Source of the DNA: a virus
Lineage: Duplodnaviria; Heunggongvirae; Uroviricota; Caudoviricetes
Length of the DNA: 5,380 bases
Virus record (IMG/VR): IMGVR_UViG_2667527898_000018
Reading direction: 5' to 3' (one strand)
Shown here: positions 1 to 5,380 of the stretch, piece after piece
Numbering within the stretch: position 1 is the first letter of the stretch
Layout of the letters: each line of letters begins with the position of its first letter
Notes under the pieces: generated by a model
Database searches by the model: none
Seen by the model: the letters and a program-made list of their open reading frames with translations, nothing else
What the model was told of the DNA's origin: nothing
Position numbers and translations under genes: made by a program

Positions 1-52
1 AAAGGTATGCGTGGAAACGCATATGGCCTTAGTTGGTCAGATATATTGGGAC

Positions 53-67
53 TCGCTTTGTCAGCGA
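53..67 (-). promoter_or_regulatory. nutR-type boxB hairpin (N-utilisation site) downstream of the cro-like gene
   Basis: Minus strand reads UCGCUGACAAAGCGA: 5-bp stem with a GACAA pentaloop, the same loop and inner stem as the + strand copy at 2962-2976. It lies just downstream of the cro-like stop, where nutR sits in lambdoid phages. A weak boxA-like CGCUAUUUUCACAA is at 82-98 on the minus strand. Confidence 0.6.
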
Positions 68-105
68 CGTAGGACGAATGTCCATTGTGAAAATAGCGGT
101 GTTAC

Positions 106-339
106 TTATGCAGCCGATGCTCTACGCGATACGAACACTAGGTTTTCCTTTTTCACAGGTTTATAACCCGTGAAATTACGAGTAGCTTCTTCGATTGCAT
201 TCGCTTTATCAGGGGAAGCTCTTCGAAATCCATATGCAATCTGGTCAAGATAGCCAACTGAAGTTTTCGCTAATGCGGCGAGTCGCTTCCATTCCTCGCT
301 AGAAGCCTCTTTTCGCCAGCGTAGTAGTTCATTACTCAT
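106..339 (-). CDS. cro: Cro/YdaS-like small HTH DNA-binding protein (77 aa), in the cro position
   Basis: 77-aa ORF divergent from the cI-like repressor across a 113-bp operator region. RBS GGAGG (complement of 345-349) sits 5 nt before the ATG. The product has an HTH-like segment (LAALAKTSVGYLDQIAYGF) followed by RRASPDKANAIEEAT, typical of Cro/YdaS-type regulators. Call rests on position plus family pattern. Confidence 0.7.
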   Translation of the reverse strand: MSNELLRWRKEASSEEWKRLAALAKTSVGYLDQIAYGFRRASPDKANAIEEATRNFTGYKPVKKENLVFVSRRASAA

Positions 340-452
340 TAGTGCCTCCGTTTATCACACAGAACAACTTTACCATTTTGATAAATCAACCGCAATGTAA
401 ATTTATCATATTGCGTATTTATCCATTTGCTAAATAGAGGGAAAATTGTGAG
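340..452. promoter_or_regulatory. Divergent immunity operator/promoter region (OR-like) between cro-like and cI
   Basis: AT-rich 113-bp divergent intergenic region with three copies of a 7-bp core: ATTTATC at 401-407 and 417-423, and its complement GATAAAT at 380-386. A 15-mer AATTTATCATATTGC (400-414) recurs almost identically at 2848-2862. Candidate cro promoter on the minus strand: -35 TTGCGG (complement of 390-395), 17-bp spacer, -10 TAAAGT (complement of 367-372). Confidence 0.6.
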
Positions 453-1157
453 ATGGAAAACAAAGATATTCGCAAATCGAATCTGGCGTTTTTGCTAGAT
501 GAGCATAAAAAAATCGCGGGTAACACTAATGCAAGCTTTGCCGATAAGCTTGGGGTTAGCCCTTCTCAACTCACGCAAGTCTCCGGTGAAAAAAGCACTC
601 GAAACATAGGGGATAAACTAGCAAGAAAATTTGAAGCCGCGCTTGGGTTACCTAATGGGTGGCTTGATTTGGTACATGATGTAACACCAATTGCATCATT
701 CTCAGATTCTTTAACTTTTGTCGGTCAGGTAAGAAAAGGGTTAGTGCGCGTGGTTGGTGAGGCAATTCTTGGTGTTGATGGTGCCATCGAGATGACCGAA
801 GAGCGCGATGGGTGGCTCAAAATTTATAGCGATGATCCAGATGCCTTTGGTCTTCGTGTGAAAGGAGACAGCATGTGGCCCAGAATAAAATCAGGAGAAT
901 ATGTACTCATTGAGCCTAACACCAAAGTATTCCCGGGTGATGAGGTGTTTGTCAGAACCGTTGAAGGACACAACATGATTAAGGTTCTTGGCTATGACAG
1001 AGATGGAGAATACCAATTTACAAGCATTAACCAGGATCACAGGCCTATAACGTTGCCTTATCATCAAGTAGCAAAGGTGGAGTATGTAGCTGGTATTCTG
1101 AAGCAATCTCGCCATCTGGATGACATCGAGGCAAGGGAGTGGCTGAAAAGTTCGTGA
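453..1157 (+). CDS. cI: Phage CI/LexA-type repressor with C-terminal S24 peptidase (autocleavage) domain, 234 aa
   Basis: N-terminal HTH (NASFADKLGVSPSQLTQVSG); C-terminal S24 signature with catalytic Ser in GDSMWP and a downstream Lys (NMIKVLG). Divergent from the cro-like gene across an operator-rich spacer. Confidence 0.9.
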   Translation: MENKDIRKSNLAFLLDEHKKIAGNTNASFADKLGVSPSQLTQVSGEKSTRNIGDKLARKFEAALGLPNGWLDLVHDVTPIASFSDSLTFVGQVRKGLVRVVGEAILGVDGAIEMTEERDGWLKIYSDDPDAFGLRVKGDSMWPRIKSGEYVLIEPNTKVFPGDEVFVRTVEGHNMIKVLGYDRDGEYQFTSINQDHRPITLPYHQVAKVEYVAGILKQSRHLDDIEAREWLKSS

Positions 1158-1237
1158 CTTCATCGTCACATAGCTGGTAACCAGTGGCCTGAAGAGACGT
1201 TTGGGTGATGTACATAGCATTTCTGGATAAAAATACA

Positions 1238-1281
1238 GATTCCCTTTATGGGAAATGAATCTATAATTCCCAAAGAGGGAA
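1238..1281 (+). promoter_or_regulatory. Candidate higB promoter with two palindromic operator-like sites
   Basis: Perfect -10 TATAAT at 1262-1267, flanked by two palindromes of identical architecture TTCCC-N5-GGGAA at 1240-1254 (TTCCCTTTATGGGAA) and 1267-1281 (TTCCCAAAGAGGGAA). No good -35 is evident. RBS-like AGAGGGA at 1274-1280 lies inside the second palindrome. Confidence 0.5.
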
Positions 1282-1293
1282 CAAAATCGGATT

Positions 1294-1581
1294 ATGAAGG
1301 TCTTAAACGTAGAGAAGCTTCACAGTTTTAGCCAGAAGCACAATCAGGCCAAGGGGGCTTTAGACTCTTGGTATGATGAAGTGATAAGAGAAAACTGGAA
1401 AACGACTCAAGACATACGGAATAGATTTAATTCTGCCGACTTCCTTCCTAACAACAGGGTAATTTTTAATATAAAAGGCAATAACTATCGGCTCGTTGTC
1501 CAAGTTGTTTACCAGGCAGGAATGGTCATAGTTGAAAGAGTTGGAACTCATGCAGAGTACGACAAGTGGAGGCTTAAATGA
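1294..1581 (+). CDS. higB: HigB-family type II toxin (RelE/ParE superfamily mRNA interferase), 95 aa
   Basis: C-terminal region FNIKGNNYRLVVQVVYQAGMVIVERVGTHAEYDK matches the recalled HigB pattern (E. coli HigB: FNVGGNELRVV...REVMTHKEYD). Toxin-first gene order is typical of higBA. Stop overlaps the next start in ATGA (1578-1581). Confidence 0.85.
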   Translation: MKVLNVEKLHSFSQKHNQAKGALDSWYDEVIRENWKTTQDIRNRFNSADFLPNNRVIFNIKGNNYRLVVQVVYQAGMVIVERVGTHAEYDKWRLK

Positions 1582-2234
1582 ATCGAACTAGCTGGCGCAT
1601 CATTAAAAATAGTGAAGAGCATGCTGCAGCTATGGAAAGGCTCATTGAACTTGCGTCTAGTGATTTACAACCTGGAACTGAAGATTTTGATGAGTTTGAA
1701 CTACTAGGCTTGCTTATCGAGCACTATGAGTCACGCGAGTTCCCTATGGACAAGCCAGATCCCATAGAAGCAATCAAGTTCCGTATGGATCAACAAGGCC
1801 TCTCTTATGCCGATATGAAACAATACATTGGCTCAGCATCTAAAGTATCTGAGGTCTTAAATCGTAAGCGTCCATTAAGTCTTTCAATGATCCGTAGACT
1901 ACATGACGGACTTGGAATTCCTGCAGATATCTTAATTCAAGATATGAGCGCAATTGAATGGAGCCTAGTTGACGCAGAGGAAGAAGAAACAGCCATGACT
2001 AGCGTCATTGCTCGGTGTGAGTCAGCCGTCACATCACCTTCTGCTTATTTCGCTGAAAAGGCTACAGAATCTTACTTTTCAAAAATGTTGTTCAGCGCAG
2101 TAAGGGGTAACGGCAAATGCAAAGAAAAACGGAATGTTTTTTCTTTGATAAGTAACTTGTCATCAAGTTTCACAGCGGCTAGCAACCTGAATGACGAAAT
2201 GACTTCTGACGGAAATTACTTATTATTACCATGA
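1578..2234 (+). CDS. higA: HigA-family HTH antitoxin with ~96-aa C-terminal extension (candidate chaperone-addiction segment), 218 aa
   Basis: Residues ~67-122 (KFRMDQQGLSYADMKQYIGSASKVSEVLNRKRPLSLSMIRRLHDGLGIPADILIQ) match the HigA HTH as recalled from E. coli HigA (…MDQYGLTLSDLPEIGSKSMVSRVLSGKRKLTLEHAKKLATRFGISPALFID, which ends there). This ORF continues ~96 residues further. Start overlaps the higB stop (ATGA) and its stop overlaps the next start (ATGA, 2231-2234). Confidence 0.85.
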   Translation: MNRTSWRIIKNSEEHAAAMERLIELASSDLQPGTEDFDEFELLGLLIEHYESREFPMDKPDPIEAIKFRMDQQGLSYADMKQYIGSASKVSEVLNRKRPLSLSMIRRLHDGLGIPADILIQDMSAIEWSLVDAEEEETAMTSVIARCESAVTSPSAYFAEKATESYFSKMLFSAVRGNGKCKEKRNVFSLISNLSSSFTAASNLNDEMTSDGNYLLLP

Positions 2235-2635
2235 AAATTGAACTCATTAGCAAAAAAGTTGAACGCTTGGTTATGACACGGCTAGAAGGCGATTCAACAG
2301 CAAAAAAATCCATAAAAACAACCGTTAATCTAAATAATGAACTTTACACTAATGTGAAGGATTCAAAGCTATTTAGAGTGAGATATTTTGCCTCCGTAAC
2401 TATTGAAGGCAGGCTTGAGATGGACATCACATACGACTTTGACTTCCGGTCAGAAGATGATTTTTCTCATGAAATGGCAAAATCATATGAGGTAAGGTCC
2501 ATTGCTCCCAATATGGCATATCCCTATATAAAAACATATGCCGAGCAAATTATCCTCATGTCAAACCTTGGTAGGTTCACTCTGCCTTATTTTGATTTCT
2601 TGGCCAATCCCATGGAAACGAACAGTAATAAGTGA
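2231..2635 (+). CDS. SecB-like chaperone (candidate TAC chaperone), 134 aa
   Basis: C-terminal region SIAPNMAYPYIKTYAEQIILMSNLGRFTLPYFDF aligns with the recalled E. coli SecB segment [33 protein letters not shown] (PN..PY, (R/K), L.P, (N/D)F). Size is close to SecB (155 aa). Translationally coupled to the extended higA. Confidence 0.7.
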   Translation: MKIELISKKVERLVMTRLEGDSTAKKSIKTTVNLNNELYTNVKDSKLFRVRYFASVTIEGRLEMDITYDFDFRSEDDFSHEMAKSYEVRSIAPNMAYPYIKTYAEQIILMSNLGRFTLPYFDFLANPMETNSNK

Positions 2636-2643
2636 AATTCCCC

Positions 2644-2670
2644 ACCCGGCCTCAGCGCCGGGTTTTCTTT
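2644..2670 (+). terminator. Rho-independent terminator ending the cI/higBA-secB transcription unit
   Basis: GC stem CCCGGC (2645-2650) / GCCGGG (2657-2662) with a 6-nt loop, followed by TTTTCTTT (2663-2670), 10 nt after the SecB-like stop. Confidence 0.7.
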
Positions 2671-2772
2671 GCCCCACGTTCGCCCACCTAAAAACACATA
2701 ATCGATTGTATTTATTGAAAAACTGATAGATACAACTTGCTAAACAACGCAATCCAGATCTCCCTCAAATCT

Positions 2773-2893
2773 CTTTATTTATCCTGTCGAATTCCTACAA
2801 CAAAATAAAACACCATAAGAATCAATACGATATTTGAAAACCAAGAGAATTTATCATTTTGCTATTGCCATTAATTTATCATTCCGATAAAGT
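2773..2893 (+). promoter_or_regulatory. OL/PL-like operator-promoter region for the early-left operon
   Basis: ATTTATC core at 2777-2783, 2849-2855 and 2874-2880. The 15-mer AATTTATCATTTTGC (2848-2862) is 14/15 identical to the OR copy at 400-414. Palindrome TTTATC-ATTCC-GATAAA at 2875-2891. Candidate PL: -35 TTGCCA (2865-2870), 17-bp spacer, -10 TAAAGT (2888-2893), the same -10 hexamer and spacing as the candidate cro promoter. Confidence 0.5.
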
Positions 2894-2961
2894 TCACCCA
2901 TCAGCAGGACGCACTACTCACCAGGGCGGTGAATATACAACGATTCGAATATGAATCTACG

Positions 2962-2976
2962 GCGCTGACAAAGCGC
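2962..2976 (+). promoter_or_regulatory. nutL boxB RNA hairpin (P22-type)
   Basis: GCGCTGACAAAGCGC is a perfect 5-bp stem with a GACAA pentaloop, matching the P22 boxB sequence as I recall it (GCGCUGACAAAGCGC). It lies in the ~240-nt leader between the candidate PL and the N-like gene. No convincing boxA upstream. Confidence 0.7.
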
Positions 2977-3141
2977 AATAACCAAAGTGAACTTTGGGGT
3001 GTGGTGAAGGGTTCATGGACGGGAATATGTCGCACGTAAAGCGGCGAGGCCTGCGGGACTATTGCCGAATTGAAGTAGGCCGAAACAGGTCGAAATGGGT
3101 CTCCCACCTACCACACCACCAAAGTTCATCAGGAGGTCTAT

Positions 3142-3525
3142 ATGACACGCAGAACTCAGTTCAAAGGCAATTCACGTTCTCGTCGTCGTGAGCGTTTAAA
3201 GGTAAAGGCATTAGCTAACGGCGTACTGGCCCGCGAAGAAGCAATAAGTTCAGAAGTATTACACCGCCCTACTCTAAGCAGAGCGCAGATTCAGGCTAAA
3301 GGTACTCACGAAACGCCTGAGCGCATAGAAGACGCTAAGCCAGTTAAGTTCATGGCACAGGACGTGATCTGGCAGCAGAAAGAATACAGACGCAATCTGG
3401 AGCGAGCGACCATTGTGTACGCGAATGAGTTTGGACATAAGCAACCAGAAACTGGTGTATGTCTTCCAAACGTAGCCATTTACGCTGCAGGCTACCGGAA
3501 ATCAAAACAACTGACAGCAAGATGA
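3142..3525 (+). CDS. N: N-family transcription antitermination protein (P22 gene 24-like), 127 aa
   Basis: N-terminal arginine-rich motif GNSRSRRRERLKVKA resembles the P22 N motif GNAKTRRHERRRKLAIER. C-terminus …NVAIYAAGYRKSKQLTAR resembles the recalled P22 N C-terminus (…VALYAAGHRKSKQITAR). Strong RBS AGGAGG at 3131-3136; first gene after OL/PL and the boxB hairpin. Confidence 0.8.
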   Translation: MTRRTQFKGNSRSRRRERLKVKALANGVLAREEAISSEVLHRPTLSRAQIQAKGTHETPERIEDAKPVKFMAQDVIWQQKEYRRNLERATIVYANEFGHKQPETGVCLPNVAIYAAGYRKSKQLTAR

Positions 3526-3586: not shown

Positions 3587-4210
3587 ATGTCATCAATCCG
3601 CTTAACTACGAGAATGAAAGAGGAAATCGCTCGTAACGCTTTAATTAAGTCTGGGGTTTTCACTGAACTTGAAGAAGTAACAAAGTTAAAGAACCAGCTT
3701 GCACTTGACGCCAGAGTTATTGCGTTTGGCGGTAAAAAGAAAACTGAGGAAGTGGATCAGTTATCATCCAAGTTGGTAGCTATAAGTGAAGAACTTGAAA
3801 AGATGGGATGTTCATTTTACTCATACGATGTTAGTTCTACTTCAATTTATCTGACTGTATCTGGCAGAAGGGTTGGATGGCATTCATATGGGAAAGACGG
3901 CAACGGCAAAGATATATTGCTCCCTACTCCGACCAAAGATAAATGCATGTTTGACGCAGAGCACGAAATAACAAAAAGGTTTGATGAAATCTGCGCATTG
4001 CAACAAAAACTTGAAGCCAAGAAAAAGGATATCGAATCAAATGTATGGGCTGCTTTAAACTCAGTCACAACAGTTAAGCGACTTATTGAAGTTTGGCCTG
4101 AAAGCAAAGAATTGCTACCAAAAGAAGCAGATAAAGCAAGTACAGCACTTCCTGCTTTACGGGTAAAAGATTTGAATAAAATGATTGGACTTCCTTCCGA
4201 GGCCGCATAG
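3587..4210 (+). CDS. Hypothetical protein, 207 aa (early-left operon accessory gene)
   Basis: ORF track gives 3527-4210, but the ATG at 3587 has an RBS GAGAGGA (3574-3580) with ~6-nt spacing, so 3587 is the likelier start. Hydrophilic, Lys/Glu-rich, no family recognised. Its stop codon TAG (4208-4210) sits in the loop of a terminator hairpin. Confidence 0.6.
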   Translation: MSSIRLTTRMKEEIARNALIKSGVFTELEEVTKLKNQLALDARVIAFGGKKKTEEVDQLSSKLVAISEELEKMGCSFYSYDVSSTSIYLTVSGRRVGWHSYGKDGNGKDILLPTPTKDKCMFDAEHEITKRFDEICALQQKLEAKKKDIESNVWAALNSVTTVKRLIEVWPESKELLPKEADKASTALPALRVKDLNKMIGLPSEAA

Positions 4211-4226
4211 TCGGCCTTTATTTTTG
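4199..4226 (+). terminator. Rho-independent terminator overlapping the stop codon of the 207-aa gene
   Basis: Stem AGGCCG (4200-4205) / CGGCCT (4212-4217), loop CATAGT containing the TAG stop, followed by TTATTTTTG (4218-4226). Confidence 0.6.
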
Positions 4227-4254
4227 CCATAAACAACAGAATAAACACTGCACT

Positions 4255-5178: not shown

Positions 5179-5380
5179 GTGTACTGGCAATAGCGGACAC
5201 TACCATTTGTTCTTTTTTTAAGTAGCTATCTGATGATATTTTTCCCTGAAGGCTGCCGGGGAGATATTCCCCAGACGAGAGTGACGACGCTGACGATTGT
5301 AGAAAATCTCAATGTATTCCCGTATTACTGAGATGGCTTCATCCCGGTTATTAAAACGATAGTAGCTCAGGCTCTCATAT
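5176..5380 (-). mobile_element. IS3-family insertion sequence, terminal inverted repeat and 3' end, continuing beyond the window
   Basis: Plus strand from 5176 reads TGAGGTGTACTGGCAATAGCGGACAC, resembling the recalled IS3 terminal repeat pattern TGATCTTACCCAGCAATAGTGGACAC. The adjacent minus-strand ORF encodes a typical IS3-family OrfB C-terminus. Boundary is approximate (about 5 bp either way). Confidence 0.7.
5218..5380 (-). CDS. IS3-family transposase OrfB, C-terminal 53 codons (partial; 5' part lies beyond the window)
   Basis: My minus-strand translation is …YESLSYYRFNNRDEAISVIREYIEIFYNRQRRHSRLGNISPAAFREKYHQIAT*, with the FYN..RRHS.LG..SP..F motif of the IS3-family integrase-core C-terminus. 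Stop codon is the complement of 5218-5220. Not in the ORF track because it runs off the window. Confidence 0.8.
   Translation of the reverse strand, partial: YESLSYYRFNNRDEAISVIREYIEIFYNRQRRHSRLGNISPAAFREKYHQIAT

Follow-up and report, generated by a model that had tools for sequence, protein, structure and literature searches.

Predicted repressor operators in an H-19B-type immunity region of a lambdoid phage sequence

The window (the whole stretch of 5,380 nucleotides that was analyzed) very probably carries the immunity region of a lambdoid Shiga-toxin phage, H-19B; the ATTTATC/GATAAAT motifs, judged by sequence comparison, would be half-sites of 17-bp operators for dimers of the cI repressor. 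These operators are already known, having been described since 2001 and annotated in GenBank, and the pattern is real but ordinary. The operator and early-promoter regions of H-19B were reportedly the subject of work by Shi & Friedman (2001, Mol Microbiol 41:585). The first-pass annotation had taken the motifs for the repressor operators of OR and OL and for the likely determinants of immunity specificity; this core reading fits both the GenBank operator annotation and the conservation of the predicted sites among homoimmune phages. The testable binding site that it offered as new is the H-19B operator set, which a passage of PMC8065619 (citing Shi & Friedman 2001) presents as already characterised; the same passage gives H-19B an OR with four operator sites.

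Immunity type and gene content

Bases 1-3200 were 98.6-99.3% identical to H-19B, BP-4795, ST2-8624, and many Stx1a phages. Compared with the H-19B record (AF034975.3), DNA identity was 98.6% across 97% of these bases, with one differing base in OR (position 389, in the spacer) and none in OL over 145 bp. The repressor and operators were near-identical to those of the H-19B immunity type, which is homoimmune with BP-4795 and ST2-8624. The ST2-8624 record (GQ499358.1) marks repressor binding sites on the same sequence at OR0-OR3 and OL1-OL3; with OR0 annotated and scoring 10/12, four OR sites were present, as in H-19B-type regions. Operator boundaries (Table 1) were taken from the GenBank annotation and comparative analysis. 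The window is oriented in reverse relative to the lambda map.

Table 1. Coordinates of genes, promoter elements, and operator sites in the window (match is to the half-sites of TTTATC-N5-GATAAA)
Feature	Position	Strand	Sequence or product	Match	Basis or remark
cro	106..339	-	77 aa		First pR-transcript gene; annotated in H-19B, BP-4795, ST2-8624
OR0	351..367		TTTATCACACAGAACAA	10/12	Extra fourth operator; GQ499358.1 annotation and consensus score
pR -10	367..372	-	TAAAGT		Preceded by TGg (extended -10-like)
OR1	369..385		TTTACCATTTTGATAAA	11/12	GQ499358.1 annotation and consensus score
pR -35	390..395	-	TTGCGG		TTGC (392-395) invariant
OR2 as annotated, register doubtful	394..410		AATGTAAATTTATCATA		GQ499358.1; KU238070.1 gives 397-413
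OR2, comparatively supported register	402..418		TTTATCATATTGCGTAT	8/12	13/17 identical to OL2
OR3	418..434		TTTATCCATTTGCTAAA	11/12	GQ499358.1 annotation and consensus score
cI repressor	453..1157	+	234 aa		HTH_3 (weak) N-terminal, S24 peptidase (LexA-like) C-terminal
Distal TTTATC half-site	2778..2794			8/12 only	Not supported as operator; unannotated in GQ499358.1
OL3	2818..2834		AGAATCAATACGATATT	7/12	Core ATC-N5-GAT; GQ499358.1 OL3, offset 335
OL2	2850..2866		TTTATCATTTTGCTATT	9/12	GQ499358.1 annotation; overlaps pL -35 by 2 bp
pL	2865..2893	+	TTGCCA 2865-2870, 17-bp spacer, TAAAGT 2888-2893		Inferred start ~2900
OL1	2875..2891		TTTATCATTCCGATAAA	12/12	Perfect dyad; GQ499358.1 annotation and consensus score
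N antiterminator	3142..3525	+			First pL-transcript gene; Pfam N_peptide E 1e-14; annotated in H-19B

The cro and cI genes are divergent, lie 113 bp apart, and are annotated in three phage records. The cro product matched PHROG 35 ('transcriptional repressor', E 4e-7). The cI product matched PHROG 4 (E 4e-38) and was 99.6% identical to cI of BP-4795 and ST2-8624. Its Peptidase_S24 domain was recovered at E 3.8e-16 (59 bits, cut-off 23.3), and the N-terminal HTH_3 match (E 0.005, 17.3 bits) fell under the Pfam cut-off of 23. A single-sequence AlphaFold model of the N-terminal domain (pLDDT 60) gave top Foldseek matches that were all XRE/HTH_3, at non-significant E values of at least 0.17. The PDB sequence search returned no relative, only spurious pseudoazurin matches. 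Downstream in the pL operon, cIII (E 2e-30) and Lambda_Kil (E 2e-20) were found, as in lambdoid phages. No RNA family was detected in the window using Rfam. Separate palindromes, TTCCC-N5-GGGAA, lie upstream of higB.

Motif counts and the operator unit

Motif and dyad counts were compared with a background of dinucleotide-preserving shuffles. Counting both strands, the window has eight copies of ATTTATC, where 1.25 were expected and 200 shuffles gave 4 at most; six of the eight copies were within the two intergenic control regions. The copies listed in the first-pass annotation, as ATTTATC or its complement, were all in place (380-386 on the minus strand, 417-423, 2777-2783, and 2874-2880), and the pair of 15-mers on which it centred, AATTTATCATATTGC at 400-414 and AATTTATCATTTTGC at 2848-2862, was exact in position and 14/15 identical. 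With up to three mismatches the 15-mer was found five times (0.9 expected), always in OR or OL. The dyad TTTATC-N5-GATAAA with up to two mismatches was also found five times (0.57 expected), four of these in OR or OL.

Dyad sites begin at 351, 369, 418, 2850, and 2875, with weaker ones at 2818 and 402, so that several dyads of one consensus stand in both OR and OL, as in lambdoid phages. Scores of 3-4 of 12 were the most common against the dyad consensus, and sites scoring at least 7 were listed by the scan. A 10/12 site at 4217-4233 was set aside as an operator and judged a neighbour of a terminator T-tract. From these comparisons the predicted operator unit is the 17-bp dyad TTTATC-N5-GATAAA, with the 7-mers as its halves. 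This dyad takes the place of the 15-mer as the binding unit; the 15-mer consists of flanking bases together with the left-hand two-thirds of OL2 or of an OR2-type site.

Conservation of the operators

Variation in OR was analyzed using 20 haplotypes that encode a 99%-identical repressor N-terminal domain. Core half-sites of OR varied at 1 of 30 positions, compared with 21 of 83 positions elsewhere in the intergenic region (Fisher p = 0.007). All 12 half-site positions of OR1 were invariant, and OR3 had a single variant (position 429, in 1 of the 20 haplotypes). OR0 is flanked by the pR -10 and the ribosome-binding site of cro; among homoimmune haplotypes its left half was conserved and its right half variable at 364-366. 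Placement of the OR sites differs by 2-3 bp between two GenBank records.

In each of the 52 loci that extended as far as OL, the half-sites of OL1 were perfect and the site varied only in its N5 (ATTCC, ATTTC, ACTCC, ATTCA). All 17 bases of OL2 were invariant in every H-19B-group OL haplotype, with variable flanks, and variation in OL3 among homoimmune loci was confined to position 2 and the N5. The first-pass annotation had overlooked the annotated OR0 (GTTTATC) and OL3 (which lacks ATTTATC). The copy that it listed at 2777-2783 was rejected as an operator because homoimmune relatives have lost or shifted it: four homoimmune loci (L016 and L055 haplotypes) carry ATTTCTC in its place, and a second homoimmune group has a different GATAAA half-site a few bp away.

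Early promoters

Promoters were assigned by consensus and homology, and transcription starts were inferred. The pattern TTGC-N19-TAAAGT had exactly two matches, 395-367 on the minus strand and 2865-2893 on the plus strand, vs 0.01 expected, and the two 29-bp promoter-operator modules were 21/29 identical (manual count). The predicted pR and pL therefore both have the form TTGCnn-N17-TAAAGT with a half-site in the spacer, as first proposed, and the alignment of pL in register with lambda pL (TTGACA, GATACT, and an identical ATCAGCAGGACGCAC) agrees with this. In the promoter scan pL scored 9/12. The pR -10 had no variable position in the 20 haplotypes and shares the geometry of pL; the last two bases of its -35 vary (TTGCGT, TTGCAG).

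Both predicted early promoters are overlapped by operators. OL1 and OR1 cover the spacer and run 4 bp into the -10, each sharing its last four bases with the start of TAAAGT, and OL2 overlaps the -35. For pRM, no convincing -35 was found from consensus and conservation between two immunity groups; the only possible element common to both groups was an extended -10-like TGcTAAATa at 428-436.

Position of OR2

For OR2, the public records disagree with one another and with the pattern of sequence conservation. The annotated site (394-410) matches the consensus at 4/12 positions (manual count), which is the random level, and it was missing from the scan list of sites scoring at least 7. Positions 397, 398, and 400 differ between homoimmune haplotypes, and a sister immunity group from Pantoea shows no conservation of 394-401. 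At 402-407, TTTATC is invariant in the 20 haplotypes and is TTTAGC in the sister group, which is that group's consensus half-site.

Tentatively, and with somewhat less than even confidence, OR2 may therefore lie at 402-418 rather than 394-410, with OR2 and OR3 occupied exclusively or on opposite DNA faces. The two sites have base 418 in common and their centres are 16 bp apart (~1.5 helical turns), an abutting layout also conserved in the Pantoea group. Taken with a C-terminal domain of the 933W type, reportedly non-cooperative, this layout would make occupancy mutually exclusive or opposite-faced. If true, the switch logic of pRM would be unlike that of lambda, the paradigm in which evenly spaced sites fill cooperatively.

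Comparison with lambdoid phages

The H-19B record (AF034975.3) and that of ST2-8624 (GQ499358.1) present essentially the same DNA, with four OR and three OL annotated sites, and no substantive difference from the ST2-8624 annotation was found except for the register of OR2, where 402-418 is favoured. The region resembles lambda in its gene order (cro, OR, cI ... OL, N), in its 17-bp operators, in the last 4 bp that OL1 and OR1 have in common with the -10, in the abutment of OL2 on the -35, in the spacing of OL1 and OL2 (25 bp here vs 24 bp in lambda), and in an identical run of 15 bases at the start of the pL transcript region. It differs in operator sequence, TTTATC-N5-GATAAA here vs the TATCACCGCCAGTGGTA-type of lambda, and therefore in immunity. 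It also differs in the extra OR0 over the pR start, in the OL2-OL3 spacing of 32 bp, and in the repressor C-terminal domain, which is of the 933W type.

Residues 81-234 of cI were 95% identical to 933W/phi24B-type cI. The repressors of 933W and H-19B have their C-terminal domain in common, and this type has been reported to bind non-cooperatively (PMC3202840). The N-terminal DNA-binding domain and operators of 933W are unrelated to those here; that phage is reported to have three OR sites and only two OL sites (PMC8065619).

A group of uncharacterised Pantoea prophages (L056-L059, L062-L064) encodes a repressor N-terminal domain 54-65% identical to the one here and has operators at the same OR and OL positions with the same promoter geometry (pL: TTGCTA/TTGCCA-N17-TAAATT). 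Both operator halves are shifted symmetrically in this group to TTTAGC-N5-GCTAAA (position 5 G, not T). The place equivalent to OL3 reads TAAATC-N5-GCTAAA, and OR0 is absent. The GenBank phage collection contained no member of the group. Among GenBank phages, mEp043 has the nearest full-length relative of cI (50% identity), but it was uninformative: the likeness lies in the C-terminal domain, and the mEp043 operators differ (TTTACC-N4-GGTAAA). A full-text literature search gave no match for the operator sequences nor for 'fourth operator', and reviews stated the number of operator sites and nothing beyond.

Discussion

In the proposed mechanism, the predicted operators would be bound by dimers of the 234-aa cI (N-terminal HTH domain, self-cleaving LexA-like S24 C-terminal domain) and possibly, if other lambdoid phages are a guide, by Cro. 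At OL, repressor on OL1 would cover the spacer and the first four -10 bases, OL2 would touch the -35, and OL3 would lie 32 bp farther upstream. At OR, OR1 would relate to pR as OL1 does to pL, OR0 would overlie the predicted start of pR and the leader of cro, and OR3 with an OR2 site would be on the cI side. In a lysogen, repressor at OL1/OL2 and OR0/OR1 would exclude RNA polymerase from pL and pR; upon SOS induction, RecA-stimulated self-cleavage would open both promoters and N and Cro would be made. Binding and induction are drawn here from the literature and from inference. The H-19B-type immunity region is present in 216 of 5426 complete E. coli genomes and governs the induction of Stx1 prophages and of some Stx2 prophages, which makes its operators relevant to toxin release and to prediction of superinfection immunity. 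The additions made here are modest: the consensus TTTATC-N5-GATAAA is backed by natural variation, and the inconsistency in the annotated OR2 is flagged.

It is very unlikely that the 15-mer AATTTATCATWTTGC itself, rather than the 17-bp dyad, is an asymmetric recognition unit common to OR and OL. Such a unit would explain the near-identity of its two copies, the 13/17 identity of OL2 with the 402-418 site, which includes their non-consensus right parts, and the invariance of OL2 over 17 bp. The best three sites (OL1, OR1, OR3), however, are dyads with GATAAA or GCTAAA as the right half, in place of a sequence containing TTGC. Bases 409 and 411 of the OR copy vary freely among homoimmune phages, its upstream AA is missing from OR3 and OR0, and the symmetrical change of both dyad halves in the sister group also speaks against an asymmetric unit. 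Equally improbable is a cro promoter at TTAGCA-N17-TATGAT (433 to 405, minus strand), which would render the shared architecture of pR and pL a coincidence. The promoter scan scored that candidate at 9/12 and left TTGCGG-N17-TAAAGT unlisted (7/12, weak -35), but it was rejected as pR since its -10 is not conserved: a change at position 409 in 7 of the 20 homoimmune haplotypes turns TATGAT into TTTGAT, removing the key A at position 2, and the sister-group counterpart is AATGCT. The TAAAGT at 367-372, by contrast, is invariant and follows TGg; the sister-group form, TAAACT, retains A2 and T6, and the placement of TAAAGT relative to OR1 has exactly the geometry of pL and of lambda.

An extremely unlikely alternative is that the ATTTATC repeats serve some other factor, such as a host nucleoid protein or the antitoxin-like HTH protein whose gene lies at 1578-2234, or are mere AT-rich promoter DNA. 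Both control regions are indeed AT-rich and a second HTH protein is encoded in the window; yet the motif counts exceed local-composition shuffles (sites of at least 10/12: 5 observed vs 0.41 expected) as well as dinucleotide-preserving ones, and the palindromes upstream of higB are of a different sequence. The sites are kept in homoimmune phages that differ in the cargo separating cI from OL (1431-2468 bp apart), so the sites track cI and not the higBA-like genes, and in the sister group the half-site changes along with the cI N-terminal domain.

Identity of the immunity region

Judged from its gene content, the window is a lambdoid immunity region in the orientation opposite to the usual lambda map. 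By megablast against GenBank phages, bases 1-3200 were 99.0-99.3% identical to many Stx1a-converting phages, BP-4795 and ST2-8624, and 98.6% identical to H-19B itself. When compared with the H-19B record AF034975.3, the control region between cro and cI (OR) carried one difference in 120 bp, at spacer position 389, and the control region upstream of N (OL) was identical over 145 bp. A segment comprising OR and the cI N-terminus was found in 216 of 5426 complete E. coli genomes. The feature is the H-19B operator/promoter system, which was characterised previously; GQ499358.1, which covers the immunity region of ST2-8624 ("similar to bacteriophage H19-B"), already labels OR0-OR3 and OL1-OL3 as repressor binding sites of 17 bp each. 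A published operator set was re-discovered here.

Coordinates of genes, operators and terminator in the window (scores are matches over the 12 half-site positions of the operator consensus)
Feature	Position	Strand	Sequence or score	Source
cro	106-339	minus		ORF list
OR0	351-367		10/12	GQ499358.1
OR1	369-385		11/12	GQ499358.1
OR2 as annotated	394-410		AATGTAAATTTATCATA	GQ499358.1
OR3	418-434		11/12	GQ499358.1
cI	453-1157		Peptidase_S24, E 4e-16	Pfam scan
HigB toxin gene	1294-1581		E 4e-30	Pfam
218-aa HTH protein gene	1578-2234			phrog_11202
134-aa ORF, protein of unknown function	2231-2635			phrog_10298
Terminator, end of HigB/HTH/134-aa three-gene block	2644-2663			
OL3	2818-2834		AGAATC-N5-GATATT	GQ499358.1
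OL2	2850-2866		9/12	GQ499358.1
OL1	2875-2891		TTTATCATTCCGATAAA, perfect palindrome	GQ499358.1
N	3142-3525			ORF list, Pfam scan
Nmad5 protein, DUF2528, cIII, kil	after N, in this order			ORF list, Pfam scan

Operators

The first-pass annotation had proposed a 15-bp operator-like motif shared by OR (400-414) and OL (2848-2862); all of its quoted strings were found where it had placed them, and its interpretation held in outline but was imprecise in detail. ATTTATC occurred in eight copies (both strands) against 1.25 expected from 200 shuffles (shuffle maximum of 4), with six of the eight in the two control regions, and the 15-mer gave 5 matches at ≤ 3 mismatches against 0.9 expected, every one in OR or OL. 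When its copies are aligned with one another, ATTTATC proves to be half of a 17-bp dyad, TTTATC-N5-GATAAA, for which 5 sites were found at ≤ 2 mismatches versus 0.57 expected (0.41 using shuffles that preserved local composition). The 15-mer is not itself the unit; it consists of two upstream bases plus OL2 positions 1-13 (or the equivalent part of the 402-418 site), and the accompanying operator list had overlooked OR0 (GTTTATC) and OL3.

The copy at 2777-2783, also listed initially as an operator core, was rejected: it is absent from the annotation, four homoimmune loci have ATTTCTC at this place, and a further group carries a GATAAA half-site a few bases off in a different register. At best, it would be a dispensable weak site. 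Elsewhere, TTTATTTTTGCCATAAA at 4217-4233 scores 10/12 and adjoins a terminator (4199-4218) after the Nmad5 gene, and a similar sequence, TTTATTTTTGGCATAAA, is present again in other loci; this is probably the terminator T-tract rather than an operator.

Natural variation and the Pantoea sister group

IMG/VR was scanned using the cI N-terminal domain, which returned 51 loci encoding a 99-100% identical domain and 4 loci at 54-65%. Among the near-identical set were 20 different OR haplotypes, which differed at 22 positions of the 113-bp intergenic region: a single one of the 30 core half-site positions (counted over OR1, OR3 and 402-407), but 21 of the remaining 83 (Fisher p = 0.007). In all 52 loci that extend to OL, the OL1 half-sites were perfect and the central five bases alone changed (ATTCC, ATTTC, ACTCC, ATTCA). 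All 17 bp of OL2 were unchanged in every H-19B-type locus reaching OL, with variable flanks.

The 4 divergent IMG/VR loci (L056-L059) together with 3 Pantoea genomes from GTDB (L062-L064) form a sister immunity group in Pantoea prophages, a type that the GenBank phage collection lacks. Its operator layout is that of the H-19B group without OR0, with sites at OL and ~120 bp ahead of the repressor start. The operators occupy the same positions and read TTTAGC-N5-GCTAAA, a symmetric change at positions 5 and 13 that matches the prediction for a dyad-binding repressor.

Register of OR2

The annotated OR2 scores only 4/12 by our own count, which is the commonest score of any 17-mer in the window, and was not among the window sites scoring at least 7. 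A second GenBank record displaces oR1-oR3 by two to three bases. Across the 20 haplotypes, positions 397, 398 and 400 vary freely and TTTATC at 402-407 never changes. The Pantoea group has unrelated, variable sequence at 394-401, and at 402-407 it has TTTAGC, the preferred half-site there. The alternative site at 402-418 (TTTATCATATTGCGTAT) reaches 8/12 and matches OL2 at 13/17 bases. Base 418 would belong to both this site and OR3, so that the two centres would be only 16 bp apart. The annotated register gives a lambda-like 25/24-bp spacing, agrees with OL2 in its position with respect to the -35, and may have been set from footprints. On these patterns, we put the 402-418 register at slightly under even chances; if true, it would be a refinement and no new kind of system.

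Promoters

The common pR/pL architecture suggested initially was borne out, since TTGC-N19-TAAAGT occurs only at 395-367 (minus) and 2865-2893 (plus), with 0.01 expected. The predicted pL promoter is TTGCCA-N17-TAAAGT (2865-2893, 9/12 in the promoter scan). In lambda pL, the -35 TTGACA aligns with TTGCCA and the -10 GATACT with TAAAGT, and the following 15 bases of the transcribed region (ATCAGCAGGACGCAC) are identical to those of the window. The annotated lambda OL and the window are also alike in that the -10 begins with the last four bases of OL1 and that the end of OL2 falls within the -35. Given this homology, pL would start at about 2900. The pL -10 is TAAAGC, not TAAAGT, in two homoimmune loci (L026 and L033), with loss of the conserved final T; this may be a pL down-mutation in a decaying prophage.

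The pR candidate, TTGCGG-N17-TAAAGT (395-367, minus), is related to OR1 as pL is to OL1. Its -10, preceded by TGg, showed no change in 20 haplotypes, and the sister-group version (TAAACT) retains the critical A2 and T6. OR0 would cover the cro leader and the inferred pR start (~360). A competing leftward candidate, TTAGCA-N17-TATGAT (433-405), scored better in the scan but was rejected because its -10 loses A2 in 7/20 haplotypes and the sister group does not preserve it. No placement was found for pRM.

Repressor and proposed switch

The cI protein is a mosaic, in which residues 81-234 share 95% identity with 933W-family (phi24B-type) cI and the N-terminal domain, predicted to bind DNA, is confined to the H-19B immunity group. 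Binding of the 933W repressor is reported not to be cooperative, apparently owing to the C-terminal domain that it shares with H-19B (Koudelka laboratory review, PMC3202840). If this is true here too, site occupancy would be expected to follow intrinsic affinity. The binding steps that follow are drawn from the lambda paradigm and the H-19B literature. In the lysogen, cI dimers would fill the dyads, occluding pL via OL1/OL2 and pR via OR0/OR1. SOS-activated RecA would then stimulate cI self-cleavage through the S24 domain, after which N and Cro would be produced and N antitermination would lead to Q and, in Stx phages, toxin expression.

Cargo genes, N leader and window end

Three overlapping genes (1294-2635) lie between cI and OL, where the cargo differs among homoimmune phages (cI start to OL1, 1431 to 2468 bp); in lambda, rexAB occupies the place taken here by the HigB/HTH pair. 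Upstream of higB, two TTCCC-N5-GGGAA palindromes (1240-1254 and 1267-1281; 2 vs 0.01 expected) lie on either side of a perfect TATAAT (1262-1267). The HigB/HTH-antitoxin-like pair probably has its autoregulated promoter and its operators in this stretch (1240-1281).

In the N leader, the sequence GCGCTGACAAAGCGC (2962-2976) has the look of a nutL boxB hairpin. A long-range inverted repeat (2988-3005/3110-3128, 10 nt perfect plus 13 nt at 85%) is also present, which we take to resemble the large stem of the lambda N leader (GGGGTGTG ... CACACCACCAAAG). At the window end, 5213-5380 (minus) encodes the C-terminal end of an IS3-family transposase (rve_2, E 1e-9), and an insertion sequence therefore comes just after kil in the pL operon.
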